Source: an uncultured Gammaproteobacteria bacterium
GTDB lineage: Bacteria; Patescibacteriota; Microgenomatia; CAZXEC01
Reading direction: 5' to 3'
NCBI GenBank assembly: GCA_964639595.1
Contig: CAZXEC010000001.1
Span: 254,498-318,497 of the forward strand
Length of the DNA stretch: 64,000 bases
The notes beneath the pieces are model-generated. The model worked only from the letters and a program-made list of their open reading frames with translations, had not been told where the DNA came from and did no database searches. A program made the position numbers and the translations under genes. This document shows positions 7,381 to 45,560 of the stretch, one piece after another (position 1 is the first letter of the stretch; every line of letters starts with the position of its first letter).

Positions 7381-7418
7381 AATTGCCTCAAAGGTGACTC
7401 TTTCGTATAATTAGACTA

Positions 7419-25681: not shown

Positions 25682-26487
25682 TGGAAATATCTATTATCAT
25701 TGTTTCTTACAATACCAAAGATAAGTTATCTAGCCTGTTGCGATCACTTACTGATGCGGGAATTGGACTGGACTGGCAGGTAATTGTGGTTGATAATGCC
25801 TCAACCGATGGCACAGTTAAGATGCTGGAGCAGCAATTTCCTGACGTCATCCTGGTCAAAAATAACCGGAATTTAGGCTTTGCCAGGGCTTGTAATATTG
25901 GTTTTGCCAAATCAAATGGCCGGTTCTTGTTTTTTTTGAATCCCGACACAGAAATAAAACCGCAGGTGGTGGAAAAATTAGTCGAATTTGCCAGTTATCA
26001 TGCTGATTGTGGCATAGTGGCGCCTCAACTATTAAATGGTGATGGCTCGCCTCAAGCTTCGGTCAGAAACTTGCCCACCCTGTGGCGGGCCATCCGTCAG
26101 TATTGGCTGGGCCAGTTGGGAGTTTATGATTTTTACCTGCCAGGCGGAGCTGCAGTATCGGTAGAGAGTGTGACCGGAGCGGCCATGCTCATTCACCGAA
26201 ATATTTTTGAAAAAGTTGGCGGTTTTGATGAGAGATATTTTATGTATTTTGAAGATTTAGAGTTATGCCGCCAAGTTATCTCCCTGGGCTATAAAATATA
26301 TTACTTACCGCAACTGACCATTGTTCACCACAAAGGCGCCAGCGCCCAAACCATAGGTGGTAAAGCATTCCAGATGCTTAAGATAAGTAGTAAAATATAT
26401 CATGGATGGGCGCAAGCGTTCTTGATTGATGTGGTGATTAGAAGTGGGCGAATATGCAAGAAATTATTAGGTCGAAATACAAAATAG
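25678..26487 (+). CDS. GT2 glycosyltransferase
   Basis: ISIIIVSYNTKDKL, VVDNASTDGT and YFEDLELC motifs. Confidence 0.85.
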   Translation: MMEISIIIVSYNTKDKLSSLLRSLTDAGIGLDWQVIVVDNASTDGTVKMLEQQFPDVILVKNNRNLGFARACNIGFAKSNGRFLFFLNPDTEIKPQVVEKLVEFASYHADCGIVAPQLLNGDGSPQASVRNLPTLWRAIRQYWLGQLGVYDFYLPGGAAVSVESVTGAAMLIHRNIFEKVGGFDERYFMYFEDLELCRQVISLGYKIYYLPQLTIVHHKGASAQTIGGKAFQMLKISSKIYHGWAQAFLIDVVIRSGRICKKLLGRNTK

Positions 26488-28157
26488 CGGTCGTCGTTAT
26501 CCTGGTTTTTGCCGCCTTTATCCGTTTTTTTGGCCTTGATAAAATTCCGCCGGAACTGTTTGGGGATGAGTTGGATGTTGGCTATCAGGCCTATTCCATC
26601 CTCACAACCGGCAAGGATTACCTGGGACATGCCTGGCCGCTTTATTTCCAATCATTTGCCGAAGCCCGGGCGCCGTTGTTTTTATATTCGGCTGTGCCGC
26701 CGGTGGCCGCATTTGGCTTAAACGAATTGGGAATTCGCGCTGCGGCGGCCTTTTTCGGGGTGGTCGGACTGGCGCTGTTGTATTTTGTGACCAAAAAGAT
26801 GTTTGCCGACAAGCCACCGGTGGCCATCCTGGCGCTTATTTTGGGGGCCATTTCTCCCTGGCACTTACAGTATTCCCGAGCCGCTTTTGAAGTCACGCTA
26901 CTGCTATCACTTTTCCTGGCAGGATTGCTGGCCTTCCTGCTGGCTTCTAAAAAACCTGTTTGGCTAATAGTTACTGCCATCACCTGGGCCTTGATGCCGT
27001 ATACTTATAACACGGCCAGTTTATTCTTACCGTTATTCTTACTTATCATAATAATCATCTATTTTGTGGAAATTAAAAGCTGGATCAAGCTGCCTGTTTT
27101 TTGGGCTGCGGCGGTGCTGTTTATGCTGTTGCTCTTGCCTATTATTGGCGAGCAATTTGCCAAAGGGGCAGAAAGATTTGGCAATATTAATATCACCACC
27201 GATGGTTCACAGCAGCTAGAGATTAATCTCAAAAGACAACAGGATGTCAACCTATCGTCGCAGCTGTCGGCCATTTACCACAATAAACCCTTGGCTTGGT
27301 CTTATCTGGCTGCTAAAAATTATGTTACTTCGCTGTCTCCCCAGTTTTTGTTTACCGAAGGCGATCCCAGGATGAGGCATAGTGTTGGTGAGATGGGGGA
27401 GTTTTATTGGTTTCAACTGCCGCTGCTCATTTTAGGTTTGATAACTTTGGCAAAAACAGATCTAAAAGTCAGAGTCTTGCTAATTGCCTGGATATTGCTG
27501 GCGCCGGTGCCTGCCGCCCTGACTCGTGATGGCGGGCATCACGCCACCCGCTTATTTTTGCTGCTGCCGCCCCTGTTGATTATTATGGCATTGGGAGCCA
27601 GCTTTCTTTTTGATTTAGCTAAGAAAAATCTGTCATGGAAGCTTATTGCTTACAGCTTATTGCTTACAGCTGCCTTGAACATAGCTTTTTTTGCCCACCG
27701 TTATTCCGTTCATTATCCCCAGGAATCATGGCGCTGGTGGCAGGTGGGATATAGAGAGGCTTTTGGCGAAATTAAAAAAGTAGCAGGCCAGTATGACCGG
27801 ATTGTCATTAATAATACTTACGAACCGGCCCTGATCCGCTTTTTAGTCTACAACCAATACGATCCGGCGCTTTTCCAGCAGCAATTTGTTCTCGACCAGT
27901 CAATCAAAAATGTCTTGCCGGGCATTGATGGATTTTCTTTGGGCAAATATTATTTTGGCACCTTATCCGGTGATATCAGGCAGAATGGCGGCTTTTCCAA
28001 AGCCATCGCTGATGGCATGCTTTATCTGGCTTCCCAAAGGGACGAAGTGCCTGGAGATCTTAATCTGTCTAAACAACCGCCGGATAATGTTAAAGTCTTG
28101 CAAAAAATCAACAATCCATTTGGTGAGGTGATCTTTTATTTGTTGACCAAAAGATAA
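26454..28157 (+). CDS. PMT/ArnT-like (GT39-type) membrane glycosyltransferase, paralog 1 of 5
   Basis: DELDVGYQAYSIL loop motif and ISPWH motif. Same architecture as 28158, 29807, 31536 and 38850. Confidence 0.7.
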   Translation: MQEIIRSKYKIAVVVILVFAAFIRFFGLDKIPPELFGDELDVGYQAYSILTTGKDYLGHAWPLYFQSFAEARAPLFLYSAVPPVAAFGLNELGIRAAAAFFGVVGLALLYFVTKKMFADKPPVAILALILGAISPWHLQYSRAAFEVTLLLSLFLAGLLAFLLASKKPVWLIVTAITWALMPYTYNTASLFLPLFLLIIIIIYFVEIKSWIKLPVFWAAAVLFMLLLLPIIGEQFAKGAERFGNINITTDGSQQLEINLKRQQDVNLSSQLSAIYHNKPLAWSYLAAKNYVTSLSPQFLFTEGDPRMRHSVGEMGEFYWFQLPLLILGLITLAKTDLKVRVLLIAWILLAPVPAALTRDGGHHATRLFLLLPPLLIIMALGASFLFDLAKKNLSWKLIAYSLLLTAALNIAFFAHRYSVHYPQESWRWWQVGYREAFGEIKKVAGQYDRIVINNTYEPALIRFLVYNQYDPALFQQQFVLDQSIKNVLPGIDGFSLGKYYFGTLSGDIRQNGGFSKAIADGMLYLASQRDEVPGDLNLSKQPPDNVKVLQKINNPFGEVIFYLLTKR

Positions 28158-29810
28158 ATGCCTAAAACATACCTAATATTAATTTTGGTTTTGGCGGCAG
28201 TCTTGAGACTGTCTTTCTTGGGACAATTTCCCGCCGGCTTTTCAGCGGATGAGGCCAATTTCGGCTATACTGCCTATTCAATTTTAAAAACCGGACATGA
28301 CGAGTGGGGAGAGCCGTTGCCTGTTTTCCCCAGGACTTTTGGTGATTTTAAGTCGCCCATTTATATCTACTTAACAGTTCCGGCAATTGCCATTTTCGGC
28401 CTCACAGAATTTGCGGTGCGCCTGCCGGCCGCATTGCTGGGAATATTGTCAGTTGTAATTGTCTATTTTCTGGTTGGAGTTTTATTTAAAGATAATAAAA
28501 GTCAACTGTCAACTGTTAACTGTCAACTGTTGGCCAGTTTCTTGCTGGCCATCTCCCCCTGGCATTGGCCCTTATCCCGGGTGGGCATTGAGACTTCTTT
28601 AATTTCTTTTTTTACTTCGCTGGTTCTTTACAGTTTTATCAAAGCCCAAGCAAACGCCAGATGGTTGGTTGCGGCTCTGGCAGTCGCCTCGTTGGGAGTT
28701 TATTCCACCAATTCCGCCAAATTATTTTTGCCATTGATATCGGCTTTCATGTTAGCGTTTGGCTGGAAGCATTATTGGGCCAATAAAAAAATCCTTTTGA
28801 CCGGTTTGGTTGTATCAGCAGCAATCCTCTTGCCGGCCATCATTCACAGTTCGGCTTTTTCCAGGCGGGCTGCCGATGTATCAATTTTTAATCCGACTGC
28901 CGGCTGGGAAGAGGTGTCCAAAAGACAATTTGAAAGCAACCTGCCCAGAGCCCTGGAGAGAATCTTTACCAATAAATTAACCTATACCCTGGGTGAAGTT
29001 TTCAAAAATTATGTGGGCTATTATTCGCCGCAGTTTTTGTTTACCAACGGCCCGTCCGAGCCGACTTACGGCATGATTCCGGGCCGGGGAGTCTTATATA
29101 TTTTTGAACTGCCGCTGGTCGTTTTGGGCTGGGTATTTTTGTTTGTTGGCAAGCATAAATATCGCTATCTGCTCTTGTTTTGGCTGCTTAGTGCTGCTTT
29201 GCCGGCCGCCCTGTCCAAAACAGCCGAGCATGCCAGTCGGGCAGCCACCTTCCTGCCGTTATGGTCGGTAATTTCTGCTTACGGTTTTTATGAAATTTGG
29301 CAGAGATGGCAGCGCTTGAGATCCTCACGTCTGCTTCAGGCAGCCCTGACACTGGTGCTGGTGTTTTCTGTTGCTTCTTTTGCCAACGACTATTTTTTCC
29401 ATGCTCCCAAAAGATTGGCCCGGTTTATGCATTATGGCGCCAAAGAAACAGTGGCATATTTAAAATCTCAAGAAGCCGCCTACCGCTTGATTATCATGGG
29501 CCAGCCATTTTCCGAAGCCCAAGTGTTTACGGCTTTTTATCAGCCGATTGAGCCGAGAGAATATCAGAAATATGCGCCGCAATTATTAAAATACGAGCAG
29601 GGCGGTCGAACTTTTTTGGACCAGTTGCCAGTTTATACGATCGGCAAGTATGAATATCGGGGTCTTAACTGGAATGATGACAAGACCCTCAAAGGAATGT
29701 TGCTGGTGGGCAAAGCGGCTGATTTTCCGGAAAAAGTTAATGCCCAAAAAATTATTTATGATCCGGCTGGTGAGCCGCTTTATAAAATTGTTGATCCGGA
29801 AAAGTTATGA
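28158..29810 (+). CDS. PMT/ArnT-like membrane glycosyltransferase, paralog 2
   Basis: DEANFGYTAYSIL and ISPWHW motifs. It carries the (GTCAACT)x4 insert. Confidence 0.7.
   Translation: MPKTYLILILVLAAVLRLSFLGQFPAGFSADEANFGYTAYSILKTGHDEWGEPLPVFPRTFGDFKSPIYIYLTVPAIAIFGLTEFAVRLPAALLGILSVVIVYFLVGVLFKDNKSQLSTVNCQLLASFLLAISPWHWPLSRVGIETSLISFFTSLVLYSFIKAQANARWLVAALAVASLGVYSTNSAKLFLPLISAFMLAFGWKHYWANKKILLTGLVVSAAILLPAIIHSSAFSRRAADVSIFNPTAGWEEVSKRQFESNLPRALERIFTNKLTYTLGEVFKNYVGYYSPQFLFTNGPSEPTYGMIPGRGVLYIFELPLVVLGWVFLFVGKHKYRYLLLFWLLSAALPAALSKTAEHASRAATFLPLWSVISAYGFYEIWQRWQRLRSSRLLQAALTLVLVFSVASFANDYFFHAPKRLARFMHYGAKETVAYLKSQEAAYRLIIMGQPFSEAQVFTAFYQPIEPREYQKYAPQLLKYEQGGRTFLDQLPVYTIGKYEYRGLNWNDDKTLKGMLLVGKAADFPEKVNAQKIIYDPAGEPLYKIVDPEKL
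28501..28528 (+). repeat. Heptanucleotide tandem repeat (GTCAACT)x4 with one C>T variant, inside the paralog-2 coding sequence
   Basis: Directly read: gtcaactgtcaactgttaactgtcaact. It encodes SQLSTVNCQ, an insertion relative to paralogs 1 and 3. Confidence 0.85.
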
Positions 29811-31462
29811 TCAAAAAAATTATCTTAATACTGGTAATTGTTCTGGCTGCCCTGCTGCGTTTCTGGCAGCTGTCCGATTACCCGCCGCATGCCAATTGGG
29901 ACGAGGCTTCCCTGGGGTATAACGCCTATTCAATTTTAACTACCGGACGTGACGAGTGGGGGCAGTTTTTGCCTTTGACCTTTCGGGCTTTTGGCGATTA
30001 CAAATTGCCCGGTTATATCTACACTTCCGTGCCGTTTGTGGCCGCTTTTGGCTTAAACGAATTTTCCATCCGTTTTGCCTCGGCTTTTTTTGGCACACTG
30101 ACAGTCCTGCTGGTCTTTTTGTTAGCCAGGCTTTTGACCCGGAAATATTCTCTGGCAACAATTGCGGCCTTCTTGCTGGCCATTTCTCCCTGGCATGTCT
30201 TTTTATCCCGGATTGCCCTGGAAGCCAATCTGGCCCTGTTTTTCCTGGTCTTGGGAATTTTCCTTTTTGTCAAATTTATTACACAGTTTGAGAACAGGAT
30301 AGCACCCCAGCTTATTTTGCTTATCGCTTGCCCCTTGTCCCTTGTTGCTGCTTTATATACTTACAACAGCGCCAGAGTGGTGGTACCATTGTTGGTTTTA
30401 TTACTGGCTGCCAATTATTACTCCCTGCTGAAAAAATTAAAAAAACAGTTGGTACTGATGCTGGTACTTTTGGTGGTTTTATCTGTGCCGGCTTTTTCTC
30501 TGGCCATCAAGCAGGATTCCAGCGCCCGCTATCGTTGGACTGCTATTTTAGACGAGGGGGCAACCAACTTCATCAATGAATCGCGCCGGACCTCTGCCTA
30601 CCCCACACCCCTCAAAGAGCTTGTTTATAACAAAATCACTTATACCCTGCCAAGAGTAGTGGCTGGGTATCTGTCGCATTTTAGCCCGGACTTTTTATAT
30701 TTTAAGGGCGGCAGTAATTTTCAATTTAATATTCCCGGGTTTGGATTGTTTTACCCTCTGGAAATGCCGTTTCTGGTTTTGGGGGTGATGGTGGCTTTCT
30801 GGCAAAAAAGCCCCTGGAGATGGCTGCTTATAGGTTGGATGTTGACCGGCCCCATTCCGGCTGCCATTACCCGTGATGCGCCTCATGCTCTGCGGTCGCT
30901 TTTTATGATGCCCGCCCCGCAGATTTTAGAAGCCTTTGGCCTGTTGTGGTTTTTGGATTCTTTGAAAAAGCCGGTCTTGGAAAGAGCCCTGGCTGTTGGC
31001 TTTGGACTGATTTTTGTGGTCGCCAGTTTTTTCTATTGGCAACTTTATACCAATCTTTACACCAGAGATTATTCCTGGTCCTGGCAATACGGTTATAAAC
31101 AAGCCATTGCTTATGTTGAAAAAAACCAGGACAAATATCAACAGATTATCGTGACCAAAAAATACGGGGAGCCGCATATTTTCCTGTTGTTTTACACTCA
31201 CTATCCGCCGGACCAGTATAGAAACGATCCGCAGCTGAAACGTTACTTTCAAACCGATTGGTACTGGGTAGATAGTTTTTATAAATATCAATTCATCAAT
31301 GACTGGGATATCAAACAAAAGGGGAGAGAAATTCAGATTAAAAAGGGCGGCCAACCAACTCTGCTTGTTGCCAGCCCCGGCAATTATCCGGTTGATGCCA
31401 AATTGGTGGAGAGTATCTATTTCCTGGACGGCAAAAAAGCCTTTGATCTGGTGGAGTTGTAG
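29807..31462 (+). CDS. PMT/ArnT-like membrane glycosyltransferase, paralog 3
   Basis: DEASLGYNAYSIL and ISPWHVF motifs. Confidence 0.7.
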   Translation: MIKKIILILVIVLAALLRFWQLSDYPPHANWDEASLGYNAYSILTTGRDEWGQFLPLTFRAFGDYKLPGYIYTSVPFVAAFGLNEFSIRFASAFFGTLTVLLVFLLARLLTRKYSLATIAAFLLAISPWHVFLSRIALEANLALFFLVLGIFLFVKFITQFENRIAPQLILLIACPLSLVAALYTYNSARVVVPLLVLLLAANYYSLLKKLKKQLVLMLVLLVVLSVPAFSLAIKQDSSARYRWTAILDEGATNFINESRRTSAYPTPLKELVYNKITYTLPRVVAGYLSHFSPDFLYFKGGSNFQFNIPGFGLFYPLEMPFLVLGVMVAFWQKSPWRWLLIGWMLTGPIPAAITRDAPHALRSLFMMPAPQILEAFGLLWFLDSLKKPVLERALAVGFGLIFVVASFFYWQLYTNLYTRDYSWSWQYGYKQAIAYVEKNQDKYQQIIVTKKYGEPHIFLLFYTHYPPDQYRNDPQLKRYFQTDWYWVDSFYKYQFINDWDIKQKGREIQIKKGGQPTLLVASPGNYPVDAKLVESIYFLDGKKAFDLVEL

Positions 31463-31535
31463 ATAAATTAAGAATTGATAATTTACTCCACTTCGTCCGT
31501 CAGCCAACGGACTACGATGGGCACAGCAATTTACA

Positions 31536-33263
31536 ATGACGAGCAAAATATTATTTGCAACTATTTTATTGATTGCCTTTGTGTTGCGGTTCTGGCAACT
31601 GGGCCAGTCTCCCAGCCTGTATTGGGACGAGCCGGCCATCGGCTACAATGCCTATTCCATTCTGACCACCGGCCGTGACGAGTATGGCAATGTCTTCCCC
31701 TTCACCTTCCGCTCATTTGATGACTATAAAGCTCCCGGCTATATTTATCTGACAGTCCCGTCTGTTGCTATTTTTGGCCTCACAGAATTTGCCGTTCGCT
31801 TCCCCTCGGCCCTGCTGGGAGTGTTAACCGTGGCGCTAGTTTATTTCTTAGTGGGAGAGCTACTTAAATTAGGTCGCAGTCAGCAGTCCAGCAGTCAGCG
31901 GTTTGCTGTTTGCTGTCAGCTGTTATCTATGGCCTCGCTGGCCATCTCCCCCTGGCACATCCATGTTTCTCGGATTGGCTTTGAAGCCAACGCCGCCGTA
32001 TTTTTCCTGACTCTGGGCATATTTCTATTCGTCAAGTTTATTGACGAATCCAAGAGTCAAGCCCCGCGAAGTCCGTCGGCTGACGGACGAAGTAGGGCTA
32101 CGTCTACCTTCTTGCTTATCGCTTTCCCCTTGCCCCTTATCGCTTCTTTATATACTTATCACAGCTCCAGATTATTAATACCGCTTCTTCTTACGGTATA
32201 TTTGATATTTTTCTGGAAAAAGTTCAATAAACAACTTCTGGTTAAGTTGGCGCTGGTGGTGTTAGTTTTATTAATCCCGCTTGCTCTTGTGATGCTGCGT
32301 CCGGAAACTCAAAACAGGGTGATTTGGTCCAGTCTTTTTTCCTACCAGCGGCCACCTGAAGAAATTAACCGGTTGGCTCAAATTGATCAGGCCCAAAGGC
32401 AAGATTTATCTTTTGGCCTATTGCATTCGGAGCCGGAATATTTTACCAAGGGTTTCCTGTCGCGCATGACCAATCATCTCTCGCCGATATTTTTATTCCT
32501 GAAAGGCGATGATAATCAGCGGTTGGGATTTGGCACCGTCGGTATTTATTATCTGTTTGAACTGCCGTTTTTTATACTGGGTGTCGTCTTTTTAACAAAG
32601 CATAAAACCACGGCTGTAATTTTATTACCTTGGTTTTTATTGGGAATTTTGCCGGCGGCACTGACCCGCGACCAAACTAACCTGCTCCGATCCCTCAACG
32701 CTTATGTGGCGGGAAATATCATCATCGGTTTGGGCGCGGCTTCGTTTTACCAGTACCTAACAGCCGGAAAAGTATTGGTCAGATCAGTAATTTTTATTCC
32801 CATGGCCGGTCTGATCTTGTGGAATGTGGGGTTTTTCCTGGATAATTATTTCGTCCATTACGCCAACAGAACCGCCCCATATTGGCAATATGGCTATAAG
32901 CAGGTAGTATCCAAGGTTTCAGCTTTGCAAGATAAATATGACAAGATTTACGTCTCCACCGACTACGGCCAGCCTTATATTTATTTCTTGTTTTACCAAA
33001 AATATCCGCCGGCCAAATATCAGCCGCAAGCCAGGCTTGTCAAAGACCCCCACAGCGTTGATGTGGGTGAAGGTGCCGGATATGATAAATTTGAGTTTCG
33101 CAAACTTTACTGGCCGGCTGATCGGGGTTTGAGAAAGAGTTTGTTTGTCGGCTCGCCGGAACAGCTGCCGGAAAAAGACATTGACCCCAAAGAGGCCCGC
33201 ATCATTGACCGTGTGTATTTCCCCAACGGCCCGGAGGCCTTTAGAATAGTGGAGACGTTATAA
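31536..33263 (+). CDS. PMT/ArnT-like membrane glycosyltransferase, paralog 4
   Basis: DEPAIGYNAYSIL and ISPWHIH motifs. It contains two low-complexity inserts (31877-31920 and 32065-32095). Confidence 0.7.
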   Translation: MTSKILFATILLIAFVLRFWQLGQSPSLYWDEPAIGYNAYSILTTGRDEYGNVFPFTFRSFDDYKAPGYIYLTVPSVAIFGLTEFAVRFPSALLGVLTVALVYFLVGELLKLGRSQQSSSQRFAVCCQLLSMASLAISPWHIHVSRIGFEANAAVFFLTLGIFLFVKFIDESKSQAPRSPSADGRSRATSTFLLIAFPLPLIASLYTYHSSRLLIPLLLTVYLIFFWKKFNKQLLVKLALVVLVLLIPLALVMLRPETQNRVIWSSLFSYQRPPEEINRLAQIDQAQRQDLSFGLLHSEPEYFTKGFLSRMTNHLSPIFLFLKGDDNQRLGFGTVGIYYLFELPFFILGVVFLTKHKTTAVILLPWFLLGILPAALTRDQTNLLRSLNAYVAGNIIIGLGAASFYQYLTAGKVLVRSVIFIPMAGLILWNVGFFLDNYFVHYANRTAPYWQYGYKQVVSKVSALQDKYDKIYVSTDYGQPYIYFLFYQKYPPAKYQPQARLVKDPHSVDVGEGAGYDKFEFRKLYWPADRGLRKSLFVGSPEQLPEKDIDPKEARIIDRVYFPNGPEAFRIVETL

Positions 33264-33752: not shown

Positions 33753-34244
33753 GTGCTCAATTCATTCGAACCTGGGGAAATCCGGCTTAAAAAATTATTA
33801 AATACAATGCCTGTCGAACATGGTCTATCTCTGCCGGAAACAGAACTGGATAAACTGCGTCATCTAAAAGAGCGGTTAGTGGGAGAAGACCGCTTAAAAT
33901 TCAACATTGGCAGGCTATGCTTATCTTATGTCCGATTCCGAGTCTATGTGGAAGCAATCACCAGTGCCGAGGCATCTTTGCCAGAACGGGCGTGCCAATC
34001 CATAGAATTTGTGGATGGGATACTCAAGCATTGCCTTGCCAATACTTTCACTTCTATACTGCGGACGGAAAATCCAGACCTGATAGGTTACGCCACACTA
34101 TTATTGGAGCAACAGCGAGGTTTTCTTAACGGCGATCTTGACTATTTGACTTTTCCCATTCCATTCAGTCATGGCATGGACATTCAGGGTCTGCTGTGGA
34201 GTAATCCTGAAGCGGAAACCCGCAAACCGGAGAGCTGGCGGTGA
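33753..34244 (+). CDS. Hypothetical protein (163 aa, GTG start) immediately upstream of the CRISPR array
   Basis: ORF only, with no recognisable motif. It ends 18 nt before repeat 1. Confidence 0.35.
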   Translation: MLNSFEPGEIRLKKLLNTMPVEHGLSLPETELDKLRHLKERLVGEDRLKFNIGRLCLSYVRFRVYVEAITSAEASLPERACQSIEFVDGILKHCLANTFTSILRTENPDLIGYATLLLEQQRGFLNGDLDYLTFPIPFSHGMDIQGLLWSNPEAETRKPESWR

Positions 34245-34262: not shown

Positions 34263-34811
34263 GTTGCATTCCTTAATTCTTCTTAAGAGGTTCTGCAGGC
34301 TGTTTATACAAATCGAGTTCTATCTCCATACTTAGTTGCATTCCTTAATTCTTCTTAAGAGGTTCTGCAGGGCGTCAAAACGAGCTGGTTAAGTTGAAGT
34401 CTTAACGGTTGCATTCCTTAATTCTTCTTAAGAGGTTCTGCAGGCAAAAAGGGACGCATAACTGCATCCCGTAATTTAAGTTGCATTCCTTAATTCTTCT
34501 TAAGAGGTTCTGCAGGTTCTGATATATAATAGTTAAAAGAAGCCCGAAGTTGAAGTTGCATTCCTTAATTCTTCTTAAGAGGTTCTGCAGGTTCTAATAA
34601 TAACTGCTTAAACCCTCGTTTACTTCCAAAGTTGCATTCCTTAATTCTTCTTAAGAGGTTCTGCAGGTTAAATGCAGCTATGAAATATCATGGAGAATTT
34701 GGTTGCATTCCTTAATTCTTCTTAAGAGGTTCTGCAGGGGTGATGGCACCGCCAAAACAGGTGTTGAAGATATAGTTGCATTCCTTAATTCTTCTTAAGA
34801 GGTTCTGCAGG
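34263..34811 (-). CRISPR. CRISPR array of 8 identical 37-bp repeats (plus strand GTTGCATTCCTTAATTCTTCTTAAGAGGTTCTGCAGG) and 7 spacers of 34-39 bp
   Basis: Repeats start at 34263, 34335, 34408, 34480, 34555, 34631, 34702 and 34775. An internal CTTAA/TTAAG stem is present. The minus-strand transcription call is inferred from the cas gene orientation and from the repeat reverse complement ending in AAGGAATGCAAC (see findings). Confidence 0.95.
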
Positions 34812-35095
34812 AGCTCTGAATTTGAGGCTAAGAATTGACCTTTTAACCCCCAAATTTTTAGTGAACCCCTTTTCTGCATAAAATATGTCAAGGTTCGCAG
34901 ATTCTCTGTAAAACCCAAAGAGAAGAACTAAAAATTGTAGTGTTCAGTCCACTTTAGTCCTAAGGGGCTAAAGTTTTCCTATTGCTTTTGAACGGTAACG
35001 AGGACCTAAAGCAAGCCCACTCTACTGCTGTGCAACACAGCCCTTGCATAATTCTCAAGCATATAGCTGAGAACTCGTCGTTAAAAACGATAATA
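34812..35095. ncRNA. Non-coding region between the array and the effector gene; candidate leader and tracrRNA locus
   Basis: 284 bp without a plausible ORF. It contains repeat-like fragments: TCAAGGTTCGCAGATTCTC (34888-34906) and CTTGCATAATTCTCAAGC (35043-35060, resembling the repeat 5' half with two short deletions), plus a GCTGTG-CAA-CACAGC hairpin (35026-35040). Confidence 0.3.
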
Positions 35096-36853
35096 TCAGA
35101 TTTTTATCTCTTTGTAAAGCGCATTTGCGATATTGATTGCGGCATTTAGATCGGCATTCATATTATGGCCACATTCTCGATTAACACATCTAAAAAAACC
35201 TTTGTTTCTGTCACCAGTCTTATGACACATTGAACATATTTGCGATGTATACTCTGGATTTATAAATCTTATCGGTATTCCGGCTTTCAAGGCTTTGTAT
35301 TCAATGAGTTTTTGTAGTTTACCATAAGAAAAATTTGATAGCATAAATCTTATTTTTCTTTCTTGTAATGCAGTTCCTTTCTTGATTCTTTTTTCTCCTT
35401 GGGTAATTTTTAGCTTTTCCATTGCAATCACGATTGGTTTTAATTCTTTGGCCTGATTAACAATTTGTCTTGAAAAGTTATGGAGCATATAATCTGAAAT
35501 TCTAGCTACTTTTTTCCCAAACTGCGCCCGACGTTTATTCACACCTTTTGTCCCCGTAAACTTTTTCCTAATGAGCTGGTACTTTGTCTTTTGGGCCATT
35601 AATCCGTGGCCAGGATAAAATTTGATGAAGCAAGGTTTACCATTGGGTTTATCGACCACAGCCGTAACAGCCGTCTGATTAACGCCTCTATCTATACCCA
35701 TAATTTTAGTCTTGCTATCTATTTTCGGTTCCTCAAATTCTTGAACTAGAGGATAGCTGAGGTAAAAATTGCCCCGTTTTCTTAGCAATAGAGGATATTT
35801 AAGCTCTCCCTCTTTAATTTTTCTTATGATATCCAGAAACCAACTCTTATTTTTTTCTGATTTTATAGTATTAACGATCAGAGTAAATTTCTCTTGTTTG
35901 CCATCAATACTCAATTTCACAAATTGCTCGTTAATATCTTTTACAGATGTGTTTTGTAAATCGACAATATTCCCCTTGAAAAGTACTTTTGTTTCTTTGA
36001 GTCTTTTTTGAAGCTTTTCAATGGTTTTATTTAACGCTTCTATGGTCCCTCGTATTGTAGATTCCGTTTTACCTCTTGATGGATTCTCCTTAAAAAGAAT
36101 ATGTTTATAGCGATCAACTCTTTGGTTTTGCTGACGAGGTAATGTAAATCTACTTGTAGTGTTTTTTTGTTTTATTTCATCTTTTAATCGATTTAAAACA
36201 TCTAACACTCCTGCGTTATTTTTGTAACGTTCTAACCATTTTTTGAGAGTAGTTGATGCGATCTTGTCATTATCTAAAACTTCTTGCCATTCAATTGCTC
36301 GACGTTGCGTTATAAAAATAGTTGAGTACACATTATTTAATTGTTTTTTGTATGAATTCAGCGTATCGTTTGCGCGTTTAAAAGCTAACGCATACTCTGT
36401 GCCGGGCAATTTGACAGCATCTCTCACATCTCCATATTGGCTACGTTTTCTATTGCCTGTTGCATATAAAATCTTTCTAATTGAGAATTCTTTATTCCAA
36501 CATTTGCCACAAACTAATTCTATGCCGTCCTTCTTTTTGCGGATTATTAATGATTTCTGCCCACAAGTCTTACATATTTTATTACGGTCGTTCCTGTTCT
36601 TACCTTCTGGTTTGTGCCCTTTGCAGGATACATAACTTTTTAAGCAATAAGAGCACTTTCCATTCAATCCTTGGCTGCCACCTGTGTCCTTTTTAATAAA
36701 CTCATAATTGTTTCGTTGACCCTCTTCTACTATTTGAATTTTTTTCGCAAAAAAGTTGACAGCCTTACTAAATCTACTAAAGTATGACTCTAAAAAATCT
36801 TCCTGTGTTAAAGTAGGAACAAACTTAAAACTATATGAGGTAGTAAGTTTCAT
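35096..36853 (-). CDS. Compact type V effector, TnpB-like Cas12f/Cas14-like nuclease (585 aa)
   Basis: RuvC-I (IMGIDRGVNQTAV), RuvC-II (IVIAMEKLK) and RuvC-III (NADLNAAINIANALY) motifs. A CxxC...CxxC zinc finger (YTSQICSMCHK ... CVNRECGH) sits between RuvC-II and RuvC-III. There is an extra N-terminal Cys-rich zinc ribbon (CSYC ... CKTCGQ ... CGKCW). It is located between cas4 and the array. Confidence 0.85.
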   Translation of the reverse strand: MKLTTSYSFKFVPTLTQEDFLESYFSRFSKAVNFFAKKIQIVEEGQRNNYEFIKKDTGGSQGLNGKCSYCLKSYVSCKGHKPEGKNRNDRNKICKTCGQKSLIIRKKKDGIELVCGKCWNKEFSIRKILYATGNRKRSQYGDVRDAVKLPGTEYALAFKRANDTLNSYKKQLNNVYSTIFITQRRAIEWQEVLDNDKIASTTLKKWLERYKNNAGVLDVLNRLKDEIKQKNTTSRFTLPRQQNQRVDRYKHILFKENPSRGKTESTIRGTIEALNKTIEKLQKRLKETKVLFKGNIVDLQNTSVKDINEQFVKLSIDGKQEKFTLIVNTIKSEKNKSWFLDIIRKIKEGELKYPLLLRKRGNFYLSYPLVQEFEEPKIDSKTKIMGIDRGVNQTAVTAVVDKPNGKPCFIKFYPGHGLMAQKTKYQLIRKKFTGTKGVNKRRAQFGKKVARISDYMLHNFSRQIVNQAKELKPIVIAMEKLKITQGEKRIKKGTALQERKIRFMLSNFSYGKLQKLIEYKALKAGIPIRFINPEYTSQICSMCHKTGDRNKGFFRCVNRECGHNMNADLNAAINIANALYKEIKI

Positions 36854-36855
36854 CG

Positions 36856-37452
36856 TTAGTTAATATTCTTATAACAATTATCAATTGCTTTTCTCTTATT
36901 CCTTGTCCCCTTTGGTAATCTTTCTGATTGTATTATACTCTCAATCTCGTTAAAAATCTTTAATAATTCATCTTTTAGTGCTTTTGTAATCCTTACCCTT
37001 ATAAAGTCCCCTGATTTTAGAAACTTAACAAAACCAAACGGCACTTTATATCCTAACCTCTCTTCTATTAATAAAGCCTCCATGATAACCTGAAATTTTT
37101 GTGACAGATACAAAAATTTAGGTTTTGAACTATATTTTACTTGAATAGGATAAGCTTCATGTAGTTTTTTGTTAATTGCAACACAATCTACCTTTGTAGA
37201 GATTTTATACTTACTAGATGTCAAGTATACGTCATATATTTTAGCTAAAAACGGCAACTCTTTGATTACCTTATTTCTTCTTGACTTTCTAGAGAATTCG
37301 ACATATTTTTGCCTACCCTCGATTTCCTTAATTGTTGTAGCTTGGGGAATTTTGAGGACGTGAATGTAATATATAATTCTAGGATCATAAAGGTAATTCA
37401 TTAAGTCGGTGGCTGTTAAATAATTTTGCATCGGTTTAAATAAATATAACAT
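36856..37452 (-). CDS. cas4: Cas4-like PD-(D/E)xK nuclease-fold protein lacking the Fe-S cysteine cluster
   Basis: The N-terminus YLTATDLMNYLYDPRIIYY matches the Cas4 hTGTDhxxYxYCPR signature with Cys replaced by Asp. There is a central VDCVAI ... PIQVKY motif and a QKFQVIMEALLIEE motif (QhxxY-like). Only one C-terminal Cys is present instead of the usual three. It overlaps cas2 by 17 nt. Confidence 0.6.
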   Translation of the reverse strand: MLYLFKPMQNYLTATDLMNYLYDPRIIYYIHVLKIPQATTIKEIEGRQKYVEFSRKSRRNKVIKELPFLAKIYDVYLTSSKYKISTKVDCVAINKKLHEAYPIQVKYSSKPKFLYLSQKFQVIMEALLIEERLGYKVPFGFVKFLKSGDFIRVRITKALKDELLKIFNEIESIIQSERLPKGTRNKRKAIDNCYKNIN

Positions 37453-37720
37453 CTCTATTTTTTATTAAAAACTCATTGGCCGGCCCGAATGCAATCCTCT
37501 TTGAAAACTCCTCCTCACTTGATGGGAAGATGAGAACCTTGTCATTTTTTGATTTCATTATCTTTTTAATCTCTAAACTTAGCATTTCTGCCTTATTTCT
37601 AGTCAAATTTCCTGAAAAGGCACTTTTTTGTATCCGTTTTAACCCGTAATCCTTACAGAGATTGGATACTTTACTCCGAATATTATTTTTGGAAATATCG
37701 TAGATAACCCAATAGACCAT
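37436..37720 (-). CDS. cas2: Cas2 (94 aa)
   Basis: MVYWVIYDIS ... N-terminus with the catalytic Asp, typical length, and position between cas1 and cas4. Confidence 0.85.
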   Translation of the reverse strand: MVYWVIYDISKNNIRSKVSNLCKDYGLKRIQKSAFSGNLTRNKAEMLSLEIKKIMKSKNDKVLIFPSSEEEFSKRIAFGPANEFLIKNRDVIFI

Positions 37721-37724
37721 AGTC

Positions 37725-38714
37725 CTACTTATAAATATAAGGTGAAAAATCTCTTTTATTACCTAATAGATATGCAGAAATTTCCCTAGTCTGTGCAAGT
37801 ATGATATCTCTCAAAATTAATTTCTTACCTTTGTAAGTAAGTTTGGTATTTAGTCTGTTGATTACAGCTTGAATTAGTTTTCTTTTACCTTTTTGTGATA
37901 GTGTGAGATCACCGGTTTTATCAAAATCCTTACCATTAATCTGTTTCCTATTAAACAATGTGACTATCGCTCTGTCCGAAATAGCTACTCTAAATAACTC
38001 TGTGACGTCTAAGACCAGTGACGGTTTACCGTATCTATCTGTATGATAGAAGCCCAAGTATGGGTCAAGTCCAGCTATAATGCAGGCTCTCTCAACTTCA
38101 GAATAGAGCATGCCATATGCATAATTTAGGCAGACATTAAACATGTCTTCACCGTTTTTATTTCTTTTGGTAAATCCTGTTATAAGCCCCAGGCCCCTGA
38201 AGTATTTTGCTGCAGTTGCCCCCTCCACTCCTAAAAGTGTGCTTCTTAGTTTATCAATAGGATTACTAGTAATGAGCTTGCTTTTTGGGAATTTTGTTTT
38301 GCTTAACTGATTTAATTGTGTATTAGTTTTTCTGTCTTTTGACAGAGATTTCAAATAATTAATCTGACTTCTAATTTTGCCTTCAACGAATTTAACAATT
38401 AGATGCTTCCCCTTTTTTGATAAATATGCCTCAAGTTGTTTTCTACGAGTTAAGGTCGTTCCACCCATATATGGACTATACGTTCTGGCGAAGGGTTTCC
38501 CTTTCCAATCTAGATAAACAATATCAATATGCTTTTCAATGGCTAACTTTACAGCTTCTGTGGAGATACTGGCAGGGGCGGTAAATAACACTTGTCTGAT
38601 TGTATCAGCTGAATATTCACTTTTTTTACCTTTATTATTTACTATCAGCCTATTACCAGACTTAGTTAGGTAAGTTCCAACTTCTTCTATTGCAAGAACA
38701 GAGTTATTAATCAT
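37725..38714 (-). CDS. cas1: Cas1 integrase (329 aa)
   Basis: Typical Cas1 layout with a conserved acidic/His cluster (NYAYGMLYSEVERA ... GFYHTDRYGKPSLVLDVTELFR). It is the first gene of the minus-strand cas1-cas2-cas4-cas12 operon. Confidence 0.9.
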   Translation of the reverse strand: MINNSVLAIEEVGTYLTKSGNRLIVNNKGKKSEYSADTIRQVLFTAPASISTEAVKLAIEKHIDIVYLDWKGKPFARTYSPYMGGTTLTRRKQLEAYLSKKGKHLIVKFVEGKIRSQINYLKSLSKDRKTNTQLNQLSKTKFPKSKLITSNPIDKLRSTLLGVEGATAAKYFRGLGLITGFTKRNKNGEDMFNVCLNYAYGMLYSEVERACIIAGLDPYLGFYHTDRYGKPSLVLDVTELFRVAISDRAIVTLFNRKQINGKDFDKTGDLTLSQKGKRKLIQAVINRLNTKLTYKGKKLILRDIILAQTREISAYLLGNKRDFSPYIYK

Positions 38715-38849: not shown

Positions 38850-40556
38850 ATGGATAAAAAGGGGCTGGTAAACTGGCTGTTTGTGGCTGTGGTGGCACTG
38901 GCTGTGGTCTTGCGGTTGTATAACCTGACCCAATATCCGCCGGGGTTTACGGCTGATGAGGCGGCCATTGGCTATAATGCCTATTCGCTGCTGCAGACCG
39001 GCCGTGATGAATACGGCACGCCCTGGCCTCTGGTGTTCCGCTCCTTTGATGACTATAAACCCCCGTTATATTTCTATTTAGTGCTGCCGTTTATGGCCGT
39101 GTTGGGGCCAACCGAGCTGGCAGTGCGGCTGCCGTCGGCCTTGTTGGGGATTGGAACAGTTGTTTTGGTATATTTTCTGGCAAAGAGACTTGCTTACAGC
39201 CGACAGCAGATAGCCGACAGCTATATGCCACTGGCAGCCAGTTTCCTGCTGGCAATCAACCCCTGGCATCTGCACTATTCACGCGGCGGCTGGGAAGCCA
39301 ACGCCGGCACCTTCTTTTTGACCCTTGGCATATTTCTATTCGTCAAGTTTCTTGCAGATTCCCAATTAGCCACGCAAGGCGTCCCCTTGCGAAGCTATAG
39401 TAGCAGGGGGCCGTTATTGTTACTGATTGCTTCTGTCTTGTCTCTGATTGCCGCTTTCTACACTTATCACAGCATCAGGGTGGTGGCGCCGGTGCTGTTT
39501 GCCCTCTATGCAATACTTTTTTGGCGACAGCTCTGGCCGGCAAAAAAGGCGGTCATTTGGGCAGTGATGGCAGGAGGAGCGTTGCTTATTCCCCTGGCTC
39601 TGCAGTTTGTGTCAGGCAGTGGGGCAGCCCGCTTTGCCGGAGTGGGCATCTTTGCCGATAGCGGACCCTTTTGGCAGGTTAATCAGGCCCGGGGGGAACA
39701 TGCCAACCTAACAGGTATTGATGCCCGACTGTTCCATAATAAAGTAGCCGCCTACACCTTAAGTTTTGCCGGGCATTACCTGGATCATTTCACTGGCCAG
39801 TTCCTGTTTTTTGGCGGTGATGCCATTGGCCGCAATAACGTGCCGGAGATGGGCCAGCTGTATGTCTGGGAAATATTGACTTTAATAATTGGCTTGTGGC
39901 TGGCGGCCAGACAAGGTGGGCTACCAGCTAAAATAGTTTTGCCCTGGCTGCTTATTGCCCCGCTGGCAGCCTCACTGACCTTCCAGACGCCCCATGCTCT
40001 GCGGGCTGCCAACATGGCCGTGCCCCTGGCAATAATCTCCGGCTATGGCCTGTCTGTCCTCTTGGCCTGGATTTGGCAAATTCGCCGGGCAGCTGCGCGC
40101 TATTTGTTACTGCTGCTTACTGCCAGCTGTCTGCTGTTGGCTTTTGTTAAGTATCTGCACCAGTATTATGTCCATATTTCCCAGGAGCGGGCCCTGGAAT
40201 GGCAGTATGGTTTTGACCAATTGGTGCCGTTTGTGCTTGCCAAGCAAGATCAGTATAATAAGGTGGTCATAACCGATCGGTACGACCAGCCCTACATTCT
40301 CATGTTATTCTATTCAAAGTACGATCCCGCCCAATACCAACCCCAGGCCCAACTCTCCAGCCGCGACCGGTTTGGTTTTGGCACGGTGCGGGCTTTTGAC
40401 AAATATGAATTTAGACACATCACTCCCGATGAAGTAGAAAAGGCCACAAATACCCTGTTTGTCTTATCCGGTGATGAAGTTTATGAAGGAGTTAGTGTGC
40501 AAAAGACCATTGCCTTCCCCAATGGGAAGGTGGCTTTTGCCATGGTGGAAAAATGA
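38850..40556 (+). CDS. PMT/ArnT-like membrane glycosyltransferase, paralog 5
   Basis: DEAAIGYNAYSLL and INPWHLH motifs. It shares an identical 24-nt stretch (GGCATATTTCTATTCGTCAAGTTT) with paralog 4 (32018 vs 39320). Confidence 0.7.
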   Translation: MDKKGLVNWLFVAVVALAVVLRLYNLTQYPPGFTADEAAIGYNAYSLLQTGRDEYGTPWPLVFRSFDDYKPPLYFYLVLPFMAVLGPTELAVRLPSALLGIGTVVLVYFLAKRLAYSRQQIADSYMPLAASFLLAINPWHLHYSRGGWEANAGTFFLTLGIFLFVKFLADSQLATQGVPLRSYSSRGPLLLLIASVLSLIAAFYTYHSIRVVAPVLFALYAILFWRQLWPAKKAVIWAVMAGGALLIPLALQFVSGSGAARFAGVGIFADSGPFWQVNQARGEHANLTGIDARLFHNKVAAYTLSFAGHYLDHFTGQFLFFGGDAIGRNNVPEMGQLYVWEILTLIIGLWLAARQGGLPAKIVLPWLLIAPLAASLTFQTPHALRAANMAVPLAIISGYGLSVLLAWIWQIRRAAARYLLLLLTASCLLLAFVKYLHQYYVHISQERALEWQYGFDQLVPFVLAKQDQYNKVVITDRYDQPYILMLFYSKYDPAQYQPQAQLSSRDRFGFGTVRAFDKYEFRHITPDEVEKATNTLFVLSGDEVYEGVSVQKTIAFPNGKVAFAMVEK

Positions 40557-41353
40557 ACAGAGTTTCTGTGGCCATTGCCACTTTTAACGAAGAGAAAAAT
40601 ATTGTGGACTGTCTGGAGTCGGTCCGCCAGCTGGCGGATGAAATTGTTGTGGTGGACGGATCATCATCTGATCAGACAGTGGAGTTGGCGCGGCGCTTTA
40701 CCGATAAAATAATTATCAAAGACAACCCCCAGATGTTTCACATCAACAAAAATGCGGCCATTGATTACTGTAGCGGCGATTGGATTTTACAGCTGGATGC
40801 AGACGAACGGGTCAGCGCAGCCCTAGCGGCAGAAATTAAAAAAATTGCCCAAGAAGGGTCTGTATACGATGGATTTTGGATTAAGCGCAGAAACTTTTTT
40901 TTGGGTCGATGGATGAGAAAGACCGGCATGTATCCGGACCCGGTGATTAGGCTTTTCAAAAACGGCACAGGCAGACTGCCGGAAAAAAGTGTCCATGAAC
41001 AAATAGAAATTGCCGGCAAAGTCAGCGCTCTTACCAATGATTTGATTCATTTGGCAGATCCCAATTTTTCCCGCTACCTGTTGCGCTCCAACCGATATAC
41101 CACGCTGACTGCCCGGGAATTTTTACAGCAGGAGGTGGGAACAGGAGTCTGGCCGATTATCAAATACCTGTTTTTCTTGCCAGCGGCGCGGTTTTTACAG
41201 CTGTATGTCAGACACAAAGGTTTTGCCGACGGTTTTGCCGGTTTGGTGTTCTCATTTTTTTCCGGACTGCATATCGCAACTGCATATATTAAGTATTGGG
41301 AGGCAAAACATGAAGGTGGCGCTGGACACATCTCCCTTGACGAGTGGGCATAG
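40553..41353 (+). CDS. GT2 glycosyltransferase (WaaE/KdtX-like)
   Basis: VSVAIATFNEEKNI ... EIVVVDGSSSDQT and LQLDADER. Confidence 0.8.
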   Translation: MNRVSVAIATFNEEKNIVDCLESVRQLADEIVVVDGSSSDQTVELARRFTDKIIIKDNPQMFHINKNAAIDYCSGDWILQLDADERVSAALAAEIKKIAQEGSVYDGFWIKRRNFFLGRWMRKTGMYPDPVIRLFKNGTGRLPEKSVHEQIEIAGKVSALTNDLIHLADPNFSRYLLRSNRYTTLTAREFLQQEVGTGVWPIIKYLFFLPAARFLQLYVRHKGFADGFAGLVFSFFSGLHIATAYIKYWEAKHEGGAGHISLDEWA

Positions 41354-43469: not shown

Positions 43470-43505
43470 TGAGCGGCGCTGATGGCGCCGTCGAAGGGCT
43501 AATTT

Positions 43506-45555: not shown

Positions 45556-45560
45556 TACCC

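Follow-up and report, generated by a model that had tools for sequence, protein, structure and literature searches.

The CRISPR array in the 64,000-nt stretch of DNA analysed here (the window) raises the question of which of its strands is transcribed and to which kind of system it belongs. All downstream use of the array depends on the strand that is transcribed, since this determines the guide sequences, the chronology of spacer acquisition and on which side to look for a PAM. An earlier note had proposed, from a likeness of the repeat to that of Un1Cas12f1 (Cas14a1), that the array is read on the minus strand, in the same direction as the cas genes. We consider it highly probable that the window holds a complete minus-strand type V-F locus, in which the array is read co-directionally with the cas genes from a leader at its high-coordinate end and together with a tracrRNA. 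The system is of the miniature-Cas12f kind (type V-F), intact though ordinary, and its host is a candidate-phyla-radiation (CPR) bacterium, a member of Candidatus Daviesbacteria. A search of the literature for previous descriptions of Cas14/Cas12f from CPR bacteria was uninformative; the Roizmanbacteria paper does not describe Cas14.

The array, its repeat and its strand

The array is real and lies where the earlier note had located it (34263-34811, minus strand), with eight identical 37-nt repeats and seven unique spacers of 34-39 nt. The repeat copies read GTTGCATTCCTTAATTCTTCTTAAGAGGTTCTGCAGG on the plus strand, starting at 34263, 34335, 34408, 34480, 34555, 34631, 34702 and 34775, and CCTGCAGAACCTCTTAAGAAGAATTAAGGAATGCAAC on the minus strand, which is exactly the reverse complement that had been reported. 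The trailer-end repeat (34263-34299) is not degenerate in the window, and because all eight repeats are identical the array is silent on its own polarity.

The minus-strand reading is supported by the homology of the repeat to that of an experimentally oriented system. The single-guide RNA of Un1Cas12f1 ends in ...GAAA-GUUGCAGAACCCGAAUAGACGAAUGAAGGAAUGCAAC-spacer (Karvelis 2020 supplement, PMC7229846), and the native Cas14a1 locus (L023), whose effector matches PDB 7l48/7c7l with 1193 bits, has this 37-mer as its repeat. Both sources agree with the length and the 3' end that the earlier note had given for the Cas14a1 repeat. A full-text literature search with the repeat string gave nothing useful, and from the literature the Un1 repeat sequence came from the supplement only. 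Read on the minus strand, the window repeat is identical to the Un1 repeat at 28 of 37 positions (ungapped, hand count), including 12 contiguous bases at the 3' end. Two blocks are common to both repeats in this reading: GCAGAACC and the 3' block AAGGAAUGCAAC, on whose presence in the published repeat the proposal had been made to depend.

A transcript of the plus strand, starting from the low-coordinate end and yielding GUUGCAUUCC... handles, would reduce the likeness to Cas14a1 to an effect of near-palindromic repeat ends. The plus reading does start with GTTGCA like the Un1 repeat, and 18/37 positions are alike (ungapped), because both repeats are near-palindromic at their ends (GTTGCA...TGCAAC); this is set against the 28/37 of the other orientation. 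The identical terminal repeats of the window would allow this direction as well, and a terminator-like plus-strand hairpin (34951-34974) would lie downstream of the array, as is likewise flagged in the related loci L005 and L029. However, the T runs of this hairpin are weak in all three loci, and the number of terminator-like matches is not above shuffle expectation. At the low-coordinate end just 18 nt separate the array from a plus-strand ORF without a family match (33753-34244), and among relatives conservation is seen in the flank on the cas side and not in this one. In addition, in L003, L029, L023 (Un1) and L014 (Mi2Cas12f2) degeneracy is confined to the cas-distal repeat and there to its 3' end, and it is the cas strand that carries the predicted tracrRNA described below, together with its promoter and both of its anti-repeat elements. 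Taken with this evidence, transcription of the plus strand is extremely unlikely.

Locus order further supports the reading of the array on the minus strand. Every protein relative of the window effector is encoded in a cas1-cas2-cas4-cas12f series, after which the same repeat comes on the cas strand. The native Cas14a1 locus is likewise laid out on a single strand, with cas1...cas14a1 (5493-7166), a tracrRNA (7245-7405) that is 100% identical to the published sequence, and an array from 7508 onwards. The predicted leader of the window array (34812-34904, minus strand) carries a conserved block, GCGAACC-TTGACA-...-GGTTCAC, at 34898-34861. The distance from TTGACA to the first repeat is fixed at 75 nt in all relatives, and the motif TTTAGCCTCAAA, near the repeat, is conserved too. 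No convincing sigma-70 promoter for the array was detected in the window leader within the limits of the scan; a candidate pre-crRNA promoter on the minus strand consists of TTTACA (34912-34907) and CATATT (34887-34882) with a 19-nt spacer, which is 17 nt long in L029.

The conservation of the leader, and the terminal repeats of the relatives, indicate that the repeat at 34775-34811 is the leader-proximal one. The spacer next to it (34739-34774, 36 nt, TATATCTTCAACACCTGTTTTGGCGGTGCCATCACC), which had been put forward as the first of the array, is accordingly leader-proximal in this polarity, and it would be the newest, since new spacers are expected to enter at the leader end. No match to the whole array was found among GenBank phages (blastn), nor to 22-mers from all seven spacers in IMG/VR, and the spacers had no self-matches in the window or in the fetched loci.

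Effector and adaptation genes

Four cas genes precede the array on the minus strand: cas1 (37725-38714), cas2 (37436-37720) and cas4 (36856-37452), each with Pfam/NCBIfam matches above cutoff, and a gene for a Cas12f-like effector of 585 aa (35096-36853). The order on this one strand is cas1-cas2-cas4-cas12f-tracrRNA-array, so that the adaptation module adjoins the effector, as in the Cas14 branch of V-F, and Cas1 has 44-45% identity to the Cas1 proteins of the Cas14a1 and Mi2Cas12f2 loci. Type V-F comprises miniature Cas12 proteins of about 400-700 aa with a C-terminal RuvC and a zinc-ribbon (TNB) domain, and the window effector fits this description. It matches Pfam PF07282 (Cas12f1-like_TNB) with 73 bits (cutoff 26.3) and NCBIfam guided_TnpB with 133.6 bits (cutoff 100), as well as Cas12f and TnpB chains in the PDB. 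Its RuvC triad is intact, D388/E479/D568 aligning with D326/E422/D510 of Un1Cas12f1 (BLASTP); D326A and D510A constructs of the latter are listed in Karvelis 2020 (PMC7229846).

The likeness of the repeat to that of Cas14a1 does not extend to the effector. The alignment with Cas14a1 covers residues 320-583, the RuvC half, only (25% identity, 55 bits; phmmer E 2.6e-7), whereas that with Mi2Cas12f2/Cas14b17 extends over the full length (30% identity, 614 columns, 186 bits). The latter value is comparable to the divergence inside the Cas12f2 group, where the L014 and L013 effectors have 27% identity. Against the Cas12f2 model NCBIfam NF049972, the window effector scores 364.4 bits in two stretches, which is under the cutoff of 450, as compared with 501.5 for Mi2Cas12f2 (L014) and 633.4 for L013. 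Judged by these alignments, the effector is not Cas14a1-like; it is remote kin of Cas14a1 and closer to the Cas14b/Cas12f2 lineage. The repeat is also not diagnostic of effector subtype, since near-identical Cas14a1-type repeats flank a Cas12f2-type effector in L013, and its likeness to the Cas14a1 repeat does not make the window system Cas14a1-type.

A predicted tracrRNA between cas12f and the array

The 284-nt interval between cas12f and the array is predicted to encode a tracrRNA with both anti-repeat elements. Its body of about 178 nt (34905-35082, minus strand, both ends predicted) would comprise stem 1 (35075-35050), a stem-3 analogue GCUGUGUUGCACAGC (35027-35041), a long-range helix (35020-35017 with 34940-34937), hairpin A (35014-34982) and hairpin B (34974-34951), followed by an anti-repeat, AR:R2 (ACAAUUUUUAGUUCUUCUCUUUGGGUUUUACAGA, 34905-34938), that pairs with nucleotides 1-34 of the repeat. 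In the Cas12f guide, AR:R1 denotes the anti-repeat in a hairpin loop and AR:R2 the one at the 3' end (PMC8053092). Upstream of the body lies a sigma-70-like promoter (35090-35118, minus strand; TTTACA, 17 nt, TG-n-TATTAT) with 10/12 matches and an extended -10, which overlaps the stop codon of cas12f. It is found at the same site in L003 and L005, and its -10 positions are invariant in seven loci.

Among loci with effectors of 48-85% identity, the interval retains 74-89% identity. In its comparative fold 95% of the cells are paired, and 14 of the 38 pairs show compensatory changes, compared with 6.7 +/- 1.7 in shuffles (0/500 shuffles reach 14) and with 1-4 after sliding of the partners. In 6/6 sequences the fold of the cas strand is better than that of its complement, with a consensus energy of -34.2 versus -30.0. 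A tracrRNA on the plus strand, which had been a first impression by eye, was dropped after the comparative alignment.

Both anti-repeat elements recur among the relatives. The stem-3 analogue displays GUUGCA (35036-35031), which is complementary to the 3' end of the repeat, UGCAAC, is invariant in seven loci and is found in L013 and L014 too. The equivalent stem-3 loop of Un1 contains UUGCAU, which forms AR:R1; in the guide of Un1Cas12f1, the AR:R1/pseudoknot element is the counterpart of the stem-3 analogue (Xiao 2021, PMC8053092; PMC10097598). An anti-repeat of about 30 nt lies at the homologous position in seven loci (26-32 pairs, dG -26 to -40) and changes in step with the repeat in L031, L029 and L032. 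This pairing is cognate-specific: the L031 repeat gives -39.9 with its own anti-repeat and -13 to -18 with those of other loci. The AR:R2 duplex of the window has 26 pairs (5 G:U) with a dG of -25.8 kcal/mol. Taken by itself it is unremarkable, with z = -2.05 relative to shuffles and with an RNAduplex score that is surpassed elsewhere in the window, and the claim of an anti-repeat therefore rests on the comparative data. The asymmetry of duplex energy between strands (G:U versus A:C) favours the cas strand in 7/7 family loci, but it is weak evidence for the strand because it is wrong on the Un1 positive control (-15.6 versus -24.9).

The interval might instead be leader or regulatory DNA only, the array being oriented as proposed and the nuclease using the crRNA alone. 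Cas12a processes and uses its crRNA in this manner. Besides the unexceptional complementarity in the window alone, such a reading can draw on the lack of sequence similarity to the Un1 tracrRNA, with local alignments within the shuffle range on both strands and no BLAST match (the stem-3/AR:R1 motif being the only part in common), and on the absence of any Rfam match in the locus and in the rest of the window. However, it would leave aside the 14 compensatory pairs of a conserved multi-hairpin fold, the invariance of a GUUGCA loop complementary to an equally invariant repeat end, the co-variation of anti-repeat and repeat in the three loci named above and the presence of a dedicated promoter. 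Moreover, all characterised Cas14-family Cas12f nucleases use a tracrRNA encoded at that place, in the interval from nuclease gene to array (PMC7229846; PMC8053092). We thus regard a system without a tracrRNA as very unlikely.

Within the family, L032 is the closest relative of the window effector and tracrRNA (85% amino-acid and 89% nucleotide identity). The window repeat differs from the L003 type at its first two bases only. The fit of the window tracrRNA to the repeat of a sister locus, which is better than that to its own, hints at exchange inside the family.

It could also be that the orientation is correct and that the locus is impaired or recently rearranged, the array, or its repeat, having been replaced by that of a related locus, which would leave tracrRNA and repeat partly mismatched. 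The window anti-repeat reaches -33 on the L032/L029-type repeat as compared with -25.8 on its own, the repeat is L003-type yet effector and tracrRNA are closest to L032, and the searches of GenBank phages and IMG/VR gave no spacer target. On the other hand, the four cas ORFs are intact with their catalytic residues present, eight identical repeats with unique spacers are typical of an active array, the 26 base pairs of AR:R2 remain and the AR:R1 element is perfect. The same locus also occurs at 100% identity in two independent samples (SRR4343435, SRR12113424). Altogether we find an impaired or rearranged locus unlikely.

For the intact, co-directional locus that we favour, the following mechanism can be proposed. 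The promoter over the cas12f stop codon would drive a structured tracrRNA of about 180 nt, and the array would be transcribed in the same direction from the leader. The first ~30 nt of the repeat would pair with the 3' anti-repeat (AR:R2), and its last six nucleotides, UGCAAC, with the GUUGCA loop (AR:R1), forming a guide-positioning pseudoknot. The long duplex would then be processed, presumably by the RNase III of this bacterium, into a crRNA with a repeat-derived 5' handle ending in GGAAUGCAAC and followed by the spacer; homology supports this form of the crRNA, which the earlier note had also predicted. With this dual guide the nuclease, probably as a dimer on one guide RNA, would cut DNA beside a 5' PAM, which is T-rich in the Cas14 branch, and new spacers would be added at the leader end.

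Place among Cas14-family systems

The locus provides a complete Cas14-family V-F set from a CPR bacterium, with an adaptation module, a 585-aa nuclease, a predicted tracrRNA whose anti-repeat elements are mapped, and an array, and together with its relatives it offers enough comparative data for the design of a single-guide RNA in an uncharacterised clade. One and the same repeat type, ...GCAGAACC...AAGGAAUGCAAC, accompanies the Cas1 module in archaea as well as bacteria and occurs beside highly divergent Cas12f effectors, so that an effector subtype should not be named from a match of the repeat alone. We tentatively propose, with somewhat less than even confidence, that the window and roughly 17 relatives make up a separate sub-clade of Cas14-family V-F in bacteria (CPR/Patescibacteria), with a tracrRNA architecture of its own and with a repeat and Cas1 module in common with the DPANN archaeal Cas14a/Cas14b systems. 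This architecture may include an AR:R2 of ~30 bp, the GUUGCA pseudoknot loop and an inverted-repeat/TTGACA leader element 75 nt from the first repeat. If true, such a sub-clade would point to modular exchange of the array and adaptation unit independent of the effector.

The Un1Cas12f1/Cas14a1 locus, type V-F1, belongs to an uncultured DPANN archaeon and was recovered here as L023. It resembles the window locus in its 37-nt repeat with both shared blocks, in the cas1-cas2-cas4-effector-tracrRNA-array order on one strand and in its Cas1 (44% identical). The Un1 guide and the one predicted for the window follow one logic, in which the end of the repeat is bound by a hairpin loop (UUGCAU in Un1, GUUGCA in the window) and its upstream part by a 3' anti-repeat. 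The two loci differ in that the effectors are alike in the RuvC half only, the tracrRNAs have no detectable sequence similarity and the anti-repeat duplex has 26-32 pairs in the window family as compared with 18 in Un1. A strong intrinsic terminator lies between tracrRNA and leader in Un1 and none in the window, and the Un1 host is archaeal whereas that of the window is bacterial.

The nearest characterised effector is Mi2Cas12f2/Cas14b17, type V-F2, from Candidatus Micrarchaeota (scaffold QMVG01000004.1, L014), with 586 aa as compared with 585. Its repeat, ATTGCAGAACCCAAAGTAATAGGTCAAGGAATGCAAC, has both terminal blocks of the window repeat, and between nuclease gene and array its locus likewise has a GUUGCA hairpin and an anti-repeat, both on the cas strand. 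The last repeat of its array is degenerate. Unlike in the window, cas1 lies downstream of the array and not upstream of the nuclease, and the host is archaeal. Expressed from the same minimal locus layout, Mi2Cas12f2 cuts dsDNA with a 5' T-rich PAM (PMC7229846). A Cas14-family Cas12f2 is already known from a bacterium as well: AuCas12f2/Cas14b18, from a Candidatus Aureabacteria bacterium, the PAM of which is likewise 5' T-rich (PMC7229846).

Array and its probable orientation on the cas strand

The CRISPR array (34263-34811) consists of eight identical repeats, GTTGCATTCCTTAATTCTTCTTAAGAGGTTCTGCAGG in the plus-strand reading, starting at 34263, 34335, 34408, 34480, 34555, 34631, 34702 and 34775, and of seven unique spacers of 34-39 nt. 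On the minus strand the repeat reads CCTGCAGAACCTCTTAAGAAGAATTAAGGAATGCAAC, and this reverse complement matches exactly the string in which the earlier note had seen a likeness to the Cas14a1 repeat. What that note stated of the Cas14a1 repeat (37 nt, a named 5' segment, a 3' end next to the spacer) also agrees with the published guide and with the native locus. The sgRNA of Un1Cas12f1 (Cas14a1) is composed of a 161-nt tracrRNA, a GAAA linker, GUUGCAGAACCCGAAUAGACGAAUGAAGGAAUGCAAC and the spacer (Karvelis et al. 2020 supplement, PMC7229846), and from this layout it follows that the Un1 repeat is 37 nt long, with GCAGAACC near its 5' end and GAAUGAAGGAAUGCAAC abutting the 5' side of the spacer. 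Scanning metagenome contigs for GCAGAACC-N14-AAGGAATGCAAC yielded the native Cas14a1 locus (L023), in which 7245-7405 is the published Un1 tracrRNA (100% identity over 161 nt), an ORF matches Cas14a.1 (PDB 7l48/7c7l) with approximately 1193 bits, and 18 repeats of the published Un1 37-mer begin at 7508, with all elements on one strand. Ungapped and counted by hand, the window repeat is identical to the Un1 repeat at 28/37 positions in the minus reading vs 18/37 in the plus reading; the near-palindromic ends (GTTGCA...TGCAAC) of both repeats explain why the plus value is not low.

On the minus strand, cas1 (38714-37725), cas2 (37720-37436), cas4 (37452-36856) and a gene for a 585-aa Cas12f-like effector (36853-35096), which matches a Cas12f1-like TNB domain and the guided-TnpB model, are separated from the array by a non-coding interval of 284 nt. 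All relatives carry cas1-cas2-cas4-cas12f and then the same repeat family on the cas strand. The cas12f-array interval is 74-89% identical among loci with effectors 48-85% identical, whereas the opposite array flank is different in each locus. Where a single repeat deviates, it is the cas-distal one, with the changes at its 3' end, in the related loci L003 (5 changes) and L029 (1) as well as in those of Un1 (L023; 1) and Mi2Cas12f2 (L014; 2). Since the eight repeats in the window are identical, the polarity based on repeat degeneracy comes from the relatives. The spacers had no match in GenBank phages or IMG/VR, nor elsewhere in the window or in the loci compared with it.

On the minus strand, each of the spacers S1-S7 (34300-34774) has a pyrimidine as its first base (five T, two C), and T is also the first base of the trailer. 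This pyrimidine start is absent in L003 and L005, and it may be due to chance in the window.

Predicted tracrRNA, leader and proposed mechanism

RNAalifold predicted a multi-hairpin fold on the cas strand for six loci, with 95.2% of cells paired. Two-sided changes were found in 14 of the 38 pairs, vs 6.7 +/- 1.7 in shuffles (0/500 reaching the observed value) and 1-4 pairs in a partner-sliding control. The cas strand was more stable than the opposite strand in all six sequences, and the consensus energy was -34.2 (covariation term 4.5) vs -30.0 (1.2). Within this predicted tracrRNA, the hairpin GCUGUGUUGCACAGC (35041-35027, cas strand) would hold in its loop the anti-repeat that forms a pseudoknot (AR:R1). 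Its hexamer GUUGCA does not vary across seven loci, recurs in the Cas12f2 loci L013 and L014, and is the complement of the invariant UGCAAC that ends the repeat. Stem 3 of Un1Cas12f1 (5 bp, nt 72-88, GGCUGCUUGCAUCAGCC) supplies its loop, UUGCAU at nt 78-83, for AR:R1 (PMC8053092), and Cas12 guides and the TnpB omega RNA have this guide-pseudoknot-stem arrangement in common as a conserved feature (PMC10097598).

The putative 3' anti-repeat (AR:R2), ACAAUUUUUAGUUCUUCUCUUUGGGUUUUACAGA (34938-34905, cas strand), is predicted to pair with repeat nt 1-34 through 26 pairs (-25.8 kcal/mol). At the homologous site, the relatives are predicted to form 26-32 pairs with energies of -30 to -40 kcal/mol, and the pairing is cognate-specific where repeats diverge, as in the related locus L031, whose repeat CTGACAGAACCTAAAATAACAAATATAGGAATGCAAC scores -39.9 with its own anti-repeat vs -13 to -18 with the others of the family. 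In the window alone the duplex is unexceptional (z = -2.05 vs dinucleotide shuffles), with duplex scores of up to -28.1 in other 300-nt tiles. The case for a predicted anti-repeat is thus comparative and rests on the relatives. By a G:U-based energy asymmetry, the cas strand is preferred in 7/7 family loci; this measure is wrong for the experimentally oriented Un1 control (-15.6 vs -24.9), and for this reason we treat it as weak evidence.

A candidate sigma-70-like promoter on the cas strand (35118-35090; TTTACA, 17 nt, TG-n-TATTAT, 10/12 matches) overlaps the cas12f stop codon, occupies the same site in L003 and L005, and has its TAnnAT positions invariant in seven loci. Repeat homology, locus layout, conserved flank, terminal repeats, structured RNA, AR:R1/AR:R2 and this promoter all point, at the level of sequence, to an array co-directional with the cas genes on the minus strand, as the earlier note had proposed. 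Given this polarity, the newest spacer would be the one at 34739-34774.

A scan of the window leader gave no convincing sigma-70 promoter for the array; one candidate is TTTACA (34912-34907) with CATATT (34887-34882), spaced by 19 nt in the window and 17 nt in L029. A strongly conserved block, GCGAACC-TTGACA-...-GGTTCAC (34898-34861, minus), keeps a constant distance of 75 nt to repeat 1 in eight loci. In it, the arms of an imperfect inverted repeat enclose a perfect -35-like hexamer that has no matching -10, and these arms pair a little better when read on the opposite strand. The block may act as an operator, an integration-host site or an RNA hairpin. Hairpin B of the predicted tracrRNA, read on the opposite strand, is flagged as terminator-like in three loci (window 34951-34974, L005 6828-6847, L029 4879-4894), with marginal or weak T runs and counts near shuffle expectation, and might stop antisense transcription through the array.

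In the mechanism that we propose, a tracrRNA of ~180 nt would be transcribed from the promoter at the cas12f end, and the array from the leader in the same direction. Each repeat would pair twice with the tracrRNA, through its first ~30 nt with AR:R2 and through its last 6 nt with AR:R1, and the long duplex would be cleaved, presumably by RNase III, to give a crRNA in which a handle from the 3' part of the repeat, ending in GGAAUGCAAC, precedes the spacer. The nuclease would then cut DNA with the tracrRNA-crRNA dual guide.

Possible exchange of repeats and genomic setting

The effector cannot be told from the type of repeat. The repeats of L013 (2144-5292; GTGGCAGAACC...) and of L023/Un1 (5493-8770; GTTGCAGAACC...) are one base apart, while the Cas12f2-type protein of L013 is ~26% identical to Cas14a1, in the RuvC half only, and the tracrRNA regions of both loci are unrelated. 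The window Cas1 is 44-45% identical to the Cas1 of the Cas14a1 and Mi2Cas12f2 loci. Considering these near-identical repeats beside divergent effectors, and the likeness of Cas1 to both loci, the repeat seems to go with the Cas1/adaptation module and the AR:R1 constraint, and not with the effector. L032/L029, sister loci of the window locus, have a repeat with which the window anti-repeat (34905-34938) scores -33 kcal/mol, vs -25.8 with its own; the window repeat is of the L003/L005 type save for its first two bases, and L032 is the closest locus in both effector and tracrRNA. These data suggest that the array was swapped or homogenised independently of the tracrRNA.

In the 13-repeat array of L005, repeats 12 and 13 are separated by a gap of 282 nt (7850-8131), in which a 79-aa gene without a family match is called; the gap may represent inserted DNA or a spacer of unusual length. 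In L031, a complete cas1-cas2-cas4-cas12f operon and its matching tracrRNA are accompanied by only one repeat (4885-4921), with no spacer, and L029 (2675-3004) has lost cas1 and cas2 and retains a truncated cas4 (109 aa) and four repeats. Lone family-type repeats without an array were found in L017 (2031-2067), adjacent to a tRNA and to the 3' end of a 16S rRNA gene, in L026 (4174-4210), where a window-type 5' half is joined to the exact 17-nt Un1 handle GAATGAAGGAATGCAAC, and in L025 (7950-7986).

The host is a CPR/Patescibacteria bacterium of the Microgenomates group; an aminopeptidase encoded in the window has 100% identity to a Candidatus Daviesbacteria protein in NCBI. Neither a tRNA nor an Rfam family was detected in the 64-kb window. 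The G+C content of the cas operon is 32-38% vs 45-47% in its flanks. Paralogous PMT_2/ArnT-like membrane glycosyltransferases and GT2/GT4 enzymes dominate the window, especially at 26454-33263 and 38850-47125. The position of the low-G+C cas island between two PMT-family paralogues suggests its insertion into a glycosylation gene cluster.

Affinity with known Cas12f systems

The effector aligns with Cas14a1 only over residues 320-583 (25% identity, 55 bits), which rules out a Cas14a1-like effector; its RuvC residues D388/E479/D568 align with D326/E422/D510 of Cas14a1. The top NCBIfam model is Cas12f2 (364 bits, under the 450-bit cutoff), the former Cas14b group (Karvelis 2020, PMC7229846). Mi2Cas12f2/Cas14b17 (586 aa) is encoded on scaffold QMVG01000004.1 (PMC7229846), which is L014, hence the Mi2Cas12f2 locus. 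Mi2Cas12f2 is 30% identical to the window effector over its full length, and the L013 protein 24%. Public data hold 17 closer relatives (48-100% identity), one annotated as Patescibacteria bacterium, and their loci are flanked by bacterial genes (GroEL/ES, MreB/MreC, penicillin-binding protein, IF3, L35). A non-exhaustive literature search found no earlier report of this CPR clade; AuCas12f2 is an earlier case of a bacterial Cas12f2 (PMC7229846).

The locus has the testable defining features of type V-F. Both protein and tracrRNA sequence place it outside Cas14a/V-F1, and Cas12f2/V-F2 is the closest group, though the effector falls below its curated cutoff. The Cas14a1 locus has the same layout as the window locus and its relatives, with the cas genes and then the array on one strand, and characterised Cas14-family relatives, expressed from this minimal layout, cleave dsDNA at 5' T-rich PAMs (PMC7229846). 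In its mode of action the window locus would follow the Cas14-family V-F systems.
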